Origin: a virus
Virus genome (UHGV): UHGV-0021275
Reading direction: 5' to 3' (one strand)
Length of the DNA: 58,445 bases
How positions within the stretch are numbered: position 1 is the first letter of the stretch; every line of letters starts with the position of its first letter. The notes beneath the pieces are model-generated. The model saw only the letters and a list, made by a program, of their open reading frames with translations. It ran no database searches and was not told the DNA's origin. Positions 12,680 through 13,996 of the stretch are shown in pieces. The position numbers and the translations under genes are program-made.

Positions 12680-13996
12680 TTAAAACTTACTCATAATGTC
12701 GTTCATACGTGCAACCAGATCATCAGCGGTGGCCGTTGCCTGTGCAGGCTGCTCAGCAACAGATTCTTGCTGAATCGGCTGTTCCTGTTGCTGCGGAGAT
12801 TCGGAGACAGCCTGTTGTGCCATACCGTCGGTAATCTGCTGGGCATTATTCGTGGCAGCTTCTACTGCGTTCGTCATTTCAGACACAACCTTTGCAAGGT
12901 CATTCTCGGATGCTACTGTGTCGACATGCCCGGCCTTCTGCGGCTGTTCCTGAACAGTCTGTTGCGTAGCTACGCCACTATCCAGTGCAGGTGCCGAAGT
13001 AAATTCTGCCAAGAAGTCATCCAACACACCCTGCTGCTGTTGCTGCGCTGGCTGCGTCCCCTGATATACCTGGGCTACATTCTCTTGTACAGGCACTTGC
13101 TGCTGCATAACTTGAGGCTGCACAACCTGCTGTTGTGGTGCAATAACCGGCTGTGGCTGCTGAACTGTAGCCTGCGGTTGCGAGACTACATTTTGCTGCT
13201 GCGGTTGTTGTGGCGGCACCTGGCTGTCATCACGACCACGACGCCAGTCAAGCATCTGCTGCGTAGCAGGCTCGACAGCTTTCTGCATAACGCGGGACAG
13301 CGTATCCATATCCAGAATAATCGGGGAACCCTGCTGGTCACAGACAGGCAGGAAACGTGCCGCCGGGACTGACTGACGCATATCGAAAATCGCCGTGGTC
13401 ATGATTGCACACGGGAACAAACCAACCGATTTACACATGTTCATGTAGGACGTGAACGAATGCGCTTTGTTATACGCACCGCCAGTCAATGCCACATCAT
13501 CACCGAATGTGGTCATACCACCGGCATCCCACACATACAGATTATCCAGGTCGATATACTGTTTGCCCTGCGGATTCATCAGGCATGGTGCCACAATGAA
13601 ACGGCGACGCATGGAATACTGGTTACGACCGCTCGCATCTTTAACACGGGCAGACATTGGGACATTTGCAGGTGGCTCTTCATTCTGTGCCCACACTGCG
13701 TCAGGCTCTACACCTTCCTCACCGTTGTATGCATTCGCATACCAGACGCAATGCTGCTCAGGACTAATCGCAACAATGACAAACGTAAACGCATCAGAAA
13801 ACGTAGCTGTTTCGCTACCCCCGGTAATCAGACGGAAGCGGTTACCCTTCAAACTGACACGGTTAAACGCGGAACCAAACGATTCCAGCGCCGGGGCAAA
13901 CATCTGCGCCAGCTGATCACGCATTTCTTGCGGCAGTGTCGGCATCATGTTAGCCATGTACGCTGGCATTGCTGGTAAATTAGTGGACATGACCAT
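12680..13996 (-). CDS. Hypothetical protein with a long Gln/Pro-rich linker (possible ssDNA-binding or annealing protein)
   Basis: 438 aa, AAGGAG RBS. Globular N-terminal ~250 aa, then a low-complexity Q/P-rich region (PPQQPQQQNVVSQPQATVQQPQPVIAPQQQ...) and an acidic C-terminus. Function is inferred only from position in the replication module. Confidence 0.55.
   Translation of the reverse strand: MVMSTNLPAMPAYMANMMPTLPQEMRDQLAQMFAPALESFGSAFNRVSLKGNRFRLITGGSETATFSDAFTFVIVAISPEQHCVWYANAYNGEEGVEPDAVWAQNEEPPANVPMSARVKDASGRNQYSMRRRFIVAPCLMNPQGKQYIDLDNLYVWDAGGMTTFGDDVALTGGAYNKAHSFTSYMNMCKSVGLFPCAIMTTAIFDMRQSVPAARFLPVCDQQGSPIILDMDTLSRVMQKAVEPATQQMLDWRRGRDDSQVPPQQPQQQNVVSQPQATVQQPQPVIAPQQQVVQPQVMQQQVPVQENVAQVYQGTQPAQQQQQGVLDDFLAEFTSAPALDSGVATQQTVQEQPQKAGHVDTVASENDLAKVVSEMTNAVEAATNNAQQITDGMAQQAVSESPQQQEQPIQQESVAEQPAQATATADDLVARMNDIMSKF

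Follow-up and report, generated by a model that had tools for sequence, protein, structure and literature searches.

We examined an open reading frame (ORF) on the minus strand of the virus genome UHGV-0021275 (positions 12680 to 13996; 438 aa counted from the first ATG), which putatively encodes a protein that binds single-stranded DNA (an SSB). The whole stretch of 58,445 nucleotides, referred to here as the window, looks from its sequence like a complete ~58 kb phage-plasmid from E. coli, a phage genome with added genes for plasmid maintenance; identical or near-identical copies of the protein were found in E. coli assemblies on contigs of 58-61 kb, and of the relatives just one is annotated, the 60.5-kb circular plasmid pSTEC648_2 (79% identity). 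We propose, with a probability of about 0.65, that the gene encodes the replicative SSB of this phage-plasmid and belongs to a large unnamed sequence family, binding of single-stranded DNA (ssDNA) being predicted, because of its fold class, its conserved residues, its architecture, its synteny and the otherwise vacant SSB slot of its operon.

The first ATG is probably not the true start of the gene. A Shine-Dalgarno sequence, GGAGA (13997 to 14001, minus strand; read from the sequence), lies directly after the TAA stop codon of the upstream gene, p136, and touches the ATG at 13996, while its spacing to an in-frame ATG at 13990 is 6 nt. Because of this spacing, and because the homologs of the putative SSB all begin MSTN..., translation probably starts at 13990, which gives a coding sequence of 436 aa (12680 to 13990, minus strand, with the stop codon at 12680-12682). 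Residue numbers below follow the 438-aa numbering.

Domain layout and predicted fold

The conserved N-terminal domain (residues 3-255; 13232 to 13990, minus strand, as are all parts of the protein described here) was modelled as helices at residues ~12-41, a segment kept in close relatives, followed by a beta-rich core with an oligonucleotide/oligosaccharide-binding (OB) fold at residues ~45-250 that closes with the motif LDWRRG; the composition of residues 1-255 is ordinary. It is followed by a disordered Q/V/P-rich linker (residues 256-360; 12917 to 13231), delimited by its composition and by a predicted local distance difference test (pLDDT) score of ~50. In residues 256-330, Q makes up 37%, V 17% and P 13%; the three together reach 68%, compared to 19% in the N-terminal domain, and Q alone stands against 5.5% in that domain (binomial P ~1e-16). 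Tandem Repeats Finder found no repeats in the DNA of the Q tract, so the low complexity lies at the protein level and does not reflect a tandem array in the DNA. From residue 331 to residue 438 the protein is rich in A, Q and E and carries a net charge of -12, and the entire tail (residues 256-438) has a net charge of -17. Within this tail a helix is predicted, at moderate confidence, at residues 364-395 (DLAKVVSEMTNAVEAA...; 12812 to 12907; block-mean pLDDT up to 85), in which M374, A377 and V378 were invariant in a 16-sequence alignment of close relatives, and which could be a second interaction or self-association element. A second low-complexity stretch, acidic and made of Q/E/A/P (residues 396-423; 12728 to 12811; assigned from composition and the model), leads to the C-terminal amphipathic tip (residues 424-438, ...TADDLVARMNDIMSKF-COOH; 12683 to 12727), which has a predicted helix at 424-437 and is kept in close relatives. 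The extreme tip, DDLVARMNDIMSKF, is an amphipathic helix ending in Phe, with a net charge of -1 over the last 20 residues, and is presumed to be a partner-docking peptide.

A preliminary description of this 438-aa reading frame had seen in it a globular N-terminal domain, a ~100-residue Gln/Pro-rich low-complexity linker and an acidic tail. The globular domain was recovered as a well-predicted OB-fold domain of ~250 residues, and the linker as the poorly ordered, Q-laden residues 256-360. Q and P are indeed enriched there, but V is as prominent as P, and 'Q/V/P-rich' is the more exact label. The acidity holds for the tail as a whole but is modest in its last 20 residues, and the helix at 364-395 interrupts the tail. 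For the N-terminal domain the same description had named an OB fold and an Erf/RecT-like fold as alternatives, and the prediction came out as an OB fold with gp32-type proteins nearest; its comparison to an SSB or annealing-protein layout is supported for the SSB half, by the fold and by a layout that is family-wide, while the annealing half found neither fold nor profile support. Annealing proteins (Erf, RecT/Red-beta, Rad52/Sak) were dropped as candidates, there being no profile match and no shared fold.

An AlphaFold model built from 8 sequences had a pLDDT of 73 and a predicted template modelling (pTM) score of 0.68. With a 73-sequence alignment, the 10-residue block-mean pLDDT of residues 50-250 was mostly 93-98 (lowest 85), falling to ~50 over residues 256-360, and the two tail helices at 364-395 and 424-437 were predicted. 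The solved structures nearest to the modelled OB core are gp32-type phage SSBs. The structural matches were phiC31 gp3 (scores of 7.1 and 7.5), BRCA2 OB domains (5.4 and 5.9), T4 gp32 (5.5 and 5.6) and RB69 gp32 (5.0 and 5.6), and nearly all of the matching predicted viral structures are uncharacterised. No T7-type SSB was among the top structural matches, an absence that is meaningful because folds of the T7 type and of the gp32 type are regarded as too dissimilar for an alignment (PMC5686142).

Like T4 and RB69 gp32, the protein is extended at its N-terminus and has at its C-terminus an acidic region for contacts with partners (for the layout of gp32, PMC11795197), it is phage-encoded within a replication module, and a distant branch of its family has a putative zinc-binding cluster of four Cys (Cys4). 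Unlike gp32, it matched no Pfam profile, that of gp32 included, and no gp32 chain appeared in the PDB sequence searches; it has no zinc ligands; and its C-terminal region, much longer than that of gp32, consists mostly of low-complexity Q/V/P sequence and ends in an amphipathic peptide. A zinc-finger gp32 homolog was dropped as a candidate, since the window protein lacks the ligands.

The top structural match leads to a second group of phage proteins. TG1 gp25, which is similar to the phiC31 recombination directionality factor (RDF) gp3, binds ssDNA and not double-stranded DNA (dsDNA), and is described as gp32-like with a predicted zinc site (PMC11795197). The modelled N-terminal domain shares its fold with phiC31 gp3 and TG1 gp25, but hhalign of the 73-sequence profile with gp3 gave a probability of 0.13% (E 0.44), gp3 is a protein of 244 aa without a long linker, and the TG1 RDF has, besides its predicted zinc site, a partner-binding peptide predicted at the N-terminus (PMC11795197). 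Both phage proteins also differ in that no integrase was found in Pfam/PHROG scans of ~45 window ORFs, ORFs longer than 60 aa being listed only for positions 9000-18000. These comparisons bear on an explanation that we regard as the least probable of those weighed here, namely a moonlighting or regulatory OB protein, acting either in the manner of phiC31 gp3, as a cofactor of directionality or partition, or as a decoy whose tip titrates host SSB-interacting proteins. While the top structural match is an RDF and some relatives end in a host-SSB-like ...IPF, the tip of the window protein is not IPF-like, the scanned ORFs hold no integrase, the presence of ParB fits plasmid-like maintenance, and gp3-type RDFs were reported as SSBs first (PMC11795197); moreover, such a role would supplement an SSB function, not replace it.

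A family with a conserved core and varied tails

The putative SSB itself matched no Pfam, PHROG or NCBIfam model (cut-offs of E <= 0.01 for Pfam and E <= 0.001 for PHROG). A word-indexed search returned close relatives only, down to 53% identity and all 'hypothetical', in which strong conservation of the N-terminal domain reaches as far as LDWRRG, is lost in the hypervariable Q tract and returns in the last 15 residues. When 1.84 billion cluster representatives were searched exhaustively with a HMMER profile, 312 passed a cut-off of E <= 1e-3 and 127 one of E <= 1e-10; in nearly all of the 312, a ~250-residue domain stands at the N-terminus and 70-320 more residues follow. From this family 73 diverse members were sampled, 34 of which matched phrog_27714 (best E 1.2e-128) and eight phrog_23155, both of 'unknown function'; the window protein is tied to these two PHROGs via the family profile only, and does not itself match them at E <= 0.001. 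The Pfam matches among the 73 were four, each in a single member and unrelated (Death, Trypan_PARP, Extensin_1 and EAL), and the names of 10 sampled distant clusters were all uninformative, being 'hypothetical' or absent. When the PDB was searched by sequence, a narrow profile gave three weak matches (E 0.45-1.5) to unrelated c-di-GMP-binding/GGDEF proteins, and with a broad profile the tail matched nearly only A/P-rich linkers, such as those of fatty-acid synthase and E2 lipoyl proteins. Neither 50,697 phage records nor the full set of complete E. coli genomes gave a megablast match to the locus, tblastn of the N-terminal domain and of the distant member P0062 found none in the phage records, and a locus search with an 8-sequence alignment returned close relatives only.

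Among the 73 diverse members, an aromatic residue occupies the positions of F54, W85, Y86, Y90, W102, Y127, F164 and F215 in 85-100% of sequences; R132 and P98 do not vary, and a basic residue stands at the position of K119 in 78%. OB-fold SSBs usually grip ssDNA via aromatic stacking and basic contacts, as described for T7-type SSBs (PMC5686142), and by analogy this mode may carry over to the present family. The same residues matter for a rival explanation, in which the protein is a replisome organiser or adaptor, helicase-loader- or hub-like and with little general affinity for ssDNA, whose OB-like domain would have a protein or a fork structure as its ligand while the long linker and tip tether helicase, primase and polymerase. 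We consider this unlikely: aromatics and Arg, which form the conserved surface signature, are a typical mark of base stacking, the proteins that match best in structure do bind ssDNA, and among the ~29 other early-region ORFs scanned the module would otherwise be without an SSB.

In the window's branch of the family, the 73 diverse members share no conserved Cys or His. A distant Cys4 branch includes EVB41_075 of the isolated Rhizobium phage RHph_TM3_14A, a 409-aa hypothetical protein in the equivalent operon slot, which is preceded by an SNF2 helicase together with a 196-aa ORF and followed by a >1,000-aa homolog of the window primase-helicase. Its N-terminal domain aligned to the family profile with an hhalign probability of 98.6% (E 1.4e-15), and its layout is likewise completed by a linker, here A/K/E-rich, and a tip, ...DFEAELDDMLNNLLPA. 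EVB41_075 and ~25 of 148 more distant representatives have four Cys in common at fixed positions. The first stands in P-D-C and aligns to A100 of the window protein; an inserted segment, C-x2-C-P-x-N-x-K-G-S, has no counterpart in the window's branch; and the fourth stands in K-A-C-x-[YF]-K-K-R, directly before the invariant Arg, aligning to a non-Cys position at ~Y127, shortly before R132, in the window protein. All four are absent from the window's branch. The cluster looks like a Cys4 metal site, to be compared with gp32's zinc site and with the one predicted for the TG1 RDF; its putative equivalence to the gp32 site comes from a sequence alignment, not from a superposition.

In order to describe the tails, statistics were taken over 133 full-length representatives, with windows drawn from the linkers as the control. 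Tail length ranges from ~67 to 320 aa with a median of 118 aa, the tail of the window protein being 183 aa. A, P and Q make up 52% of the linkers but 20% of the N-terminal domains, the tail is net negative in 122 of the 133, and an amphipathic motif of hydrophobic residues at i, i+3 and i+4 is present in the last 22 residues of 111 of the 133, compared to 8% of the control windows. Four of the tips, all in distant members (P0050, P0062, P0064 and P0105), end in [ILMV]PF, for example ...MQDIPF and ...EMDLPF; 11 others end F-acidic and 12 end in Phe, as does the window protein. The combination of a core, a disordered linker and a terminal peptide is thus a rule of the family and not a quirk of the window gene. 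The length of the Q tract was also found to be polymorphic among close relatives (P0001-P0012), the proteins being 436-450 aa long and their N-terminal domains differing by <=1 residue, which indicates, at the level of sequence, that the linker expands and contracts rapidly and that its length is little constrained.

The tip of bacterial SSBs is ...DDDIPF, and the ...IPF ending is its signature. Since the tips of the few ...IPF-ending relatives resemble this host SSB tip, their sequences suggest that these distant family members recruit host SSB-interacting proteins. Acidic flexible C-termini have been described as characteristic of bacterial and phage SSBs (PMC5686142), and in E. coli SSB a disordered linker of 56 residues is joined to an acidic tip of 9 residues, through which partners are recruited (PMC7145534). 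The putative SSB has the same succession of OB core, disordered Q/P-rich linker and short C-terminal docking tip (PMC7145534), a resemblance of layout and not a proof of homology, which the four [ILMV]PF-tipped members extend. In contrast to E. coli-type SSBs, there was no PF00436 match in Pfam or NCBIfam, the window core has ~250 residues and a gp32-like topology instead of a 115-residue tetramer-forming OB domain, the linker and tip span 183 aa instead of 65 aa, and the tip is an amphipathic helix, not of the DDDIPF type. The preliminary description had called the linker unusually long, which is correct against E. coli SSB but not within its own family, in whose range it falls. The description that fits the family best is that of a new sequence family inside a known functional class, with a core closest to the gp32/gp3 type and a tail organised like that of a bacterial SSB.

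The replication operon and the proposed mode of action

The window genes were given domain labels by Pfam and/or PHROG scans. The putative SSB gene lies in a replication operon with tight junctions, in which each Shine-Dalgarno sequence adjoins the preceding stop codon (all of the following on the minus strand). Upstream of it are p136 (14002 to 14412), whose stop codon is followed by the Shine-Dalgarno sequence of the putative SSB, and an SNF2-family helicase (14457 to 16160); directly downstream are a small helix-turn-helix protein (12394 to 12669), whose own Shine-Dalgarno sequence follows the stop codon of the putative SSB, and a DUF927 primase-helicase (9262 to 12381). The order SNF2, p136 homolog (~150 aa), family member, small ORF and DUF927 primase-helicase recurs in members that are 28-31% identical, and in these a PD-(D/E)XK nuclease and a family A DNA polymerase (PolA) are found near the conserved module; their counterparts in the window lie at 16661 to 17365 and 17381 to 19648, respectively. 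This neighbouring nuclease would be the partner in a further explanation, that of a recombination protein (single-strand annealing or mediator) working with the PD-(D/E)XK exonuclease, which we hold to be highly improbable.

No match to SSB, gp32, gp2.5/DUF2815 or DUF669 was found in Pfam/PHROG scans of ~29 other early-region ORFs, several small ORFs being unannotated and the survey not exhaustive, and the earlier statement that the window holds no other SSB candidate agrees with this result to the same extent. Like T7 gp2.5 and the DUF2815 protein Enc34 ORF6, the putative SSB has an acidic flexible C-terminus, and it ends in Phe, which is also the terminal residue of gp2.5; unlike them, it has neither a profile match nor the T7-type OB topology with a long capping helix after beta-2. 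The putative SSB would hold the SSB slot in a module very similar to that of Enc34-like phages, which is composed of primase, PolA, VRR-NUC and helicase and in which the DUF2815 protein is the experimentally verified SSB (PMC5686142). The N4 SSB (DUF669) offers a parallel in how it was recognised, via weak OB-fold signals, acidic tails and the lack of another SSB in the genome (PMC4889955), but none of the 73 diverse members matched DUF669 in Pfam. An SSB can be recognised in about half of dsDNA viruses, OB-fold SSBs are notoriously hard to detect from sequence, and Kazlauskas et al. predicted that they escape detection in many viral genomes (PMC4889955); the present family appears to be one such undetected case.

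If the protein is the replicative SSB, its OB core would coat the ssDNA of the fork: bases would stack on F54, W85, Y86, Y90, W102 and F215, and R130-R132 would supply contacts. Cooperativity between neighbours may come from the N-terminal helices, by analogy with gp32 and TG1 gp25 (PMC11795197). The flexible acidic linker would leave the tip free to move and might occupy the basic cleft in competition with DNA, favouring ssDNA over dsDNA; an acidic tail is reported to modulate DNA binding in gp2.5, gp32 and Enc34 ORF6 (PMC5686142). Finally, the C-terminal amphipathic peptide would dock on a replisome partner, for which PolA, the primase-helicase, the SNF2 helicase and p136 are the candidates.

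Several observations weigh against the proposal of a replicative SSB. None of the 73 diverse members matched an SSB-related Pfam family, and no profile links the family to any PDB chain or to gp3. OB folds also have non-DNA functions, the net charge of the N-terminal domain is -3, and gp3, the top structural match, is known mainly as an RDF. The window protein is without the zinc site of gp32 and gp3, and it is a sequence alignment, not a superposition, that equates the Cys4 cluster of the distant branch with the gp32 zinc site. The tip is modestly acidic and not a classic poly-acidic one, unlike well-studied SSB tips.

A wider proposal, to which we give somewhat less than even odds, is that the family forms a distinct, widespread and unrecognised lineage of phage SSBs, which combines a monomer-type, gp32-like OB core with a linker and tip in the style of bacterial SSBs. 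One branch would have kept the Cys4 zinc site and the other, including the E. coli element, would have lost it; the tips would have diversified by partner, some copying the host ...IPF to capture host SSB-interacting proteins; and the long Q/P linker could also drive condensate formation at replication sites.

If the replicative SSB assignment is true, a function would be given to at least 312 clusters at 50% identity, including PHROGs 27714 and 23155 and the 'hypothetical' proteins of Rhizobium phages, and the missing SSB slot would be filled in a recurrent replication module of PolA, SNF2 and DUF927 primase. The family also offers natural experiments, with cores that have or lack the putative zinc site, linkers of ~70-320 residues and varied docking tips. 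Phage SSBs of this general kind already serve as reagents, gp32 being a component of isothermal amplification methods, and an SSB from an E. coli element that is gp32-like, monomeric and free of zinc could therefore find a use as well. The concepts of replication would not change; the value lies in annotation and in a target for biochemistry that is conceptually familiar.

Neighbouring genes and the rest of the element

The product of p136 (136 aa) has an N-terminal coiled-coil-like helix and falls just below the cutoff of DUF7307 ('Pam3 gp33-like'; 26.1 vs 27 bits). Its homologs stand directly upstream of the family member in distant relatives, as judged by homology at loci L002/L004, L005 and L009 and by position at L006 and L008, and p136 may work together with the putative SSB as its partner. 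Another match of p136 is to phrog_13900, labelled 'minor head protein', a label at odds with its location in a replication operon; a virion protein, suggested solely by this label, was dropped as a reading of the putative SSB.

Between the SNF2-family helicase and the PD-(D/E)XK nuclease lies p168 (16142 to 16648, minus strand), which has no Pfam, PHROG or NCBIfam match; its sequence includes ...GEPDFDV...VKVEAKE..., similar in appearance to a nuclease motif of the PD-(D/E)XK type. In Rhizobium phage RHph_TM3_14A this slot is held by a VRR-NUC protein. In the same phage, EVB41_076 (L011:20418-21707; >1,000 aa) is annotated 'putative integrase protein'. Because it is homologous to the N-terminal part of the window DUF927 primase-helicase (36% identity over 119 aa, E 1e-15), it is probably misannotated.

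The cultured-phage polymerases nearest to the window PolA are just 24-27% identical to it. Its gene is adjoined, with a 4-nt overlap, by one for a protein with an Rv2179c-like 3'-5' exoribonuclease domain (19645 to 20202, minus strand; E 2e-49), which may supply a separate proofreading or primer-processing activity, and ParB (20206 to 21141) is last in the order of the replication operon. Among the presumed virion genes of the late region, none of the eight ORFs scanned matched Pfam and five were detectable, by PHROGs only. The remaining genes of the window include a HigA-like protein (7690 to 7992) and HigB (8003 to 8341), ArdA (31871 to 32617), the large terminase (38324 to 39814) and the major head protein (45747 to 46694), as well as a portal-like protein, an internal virion protein, a lysozyme and a RusA-like resolvase.

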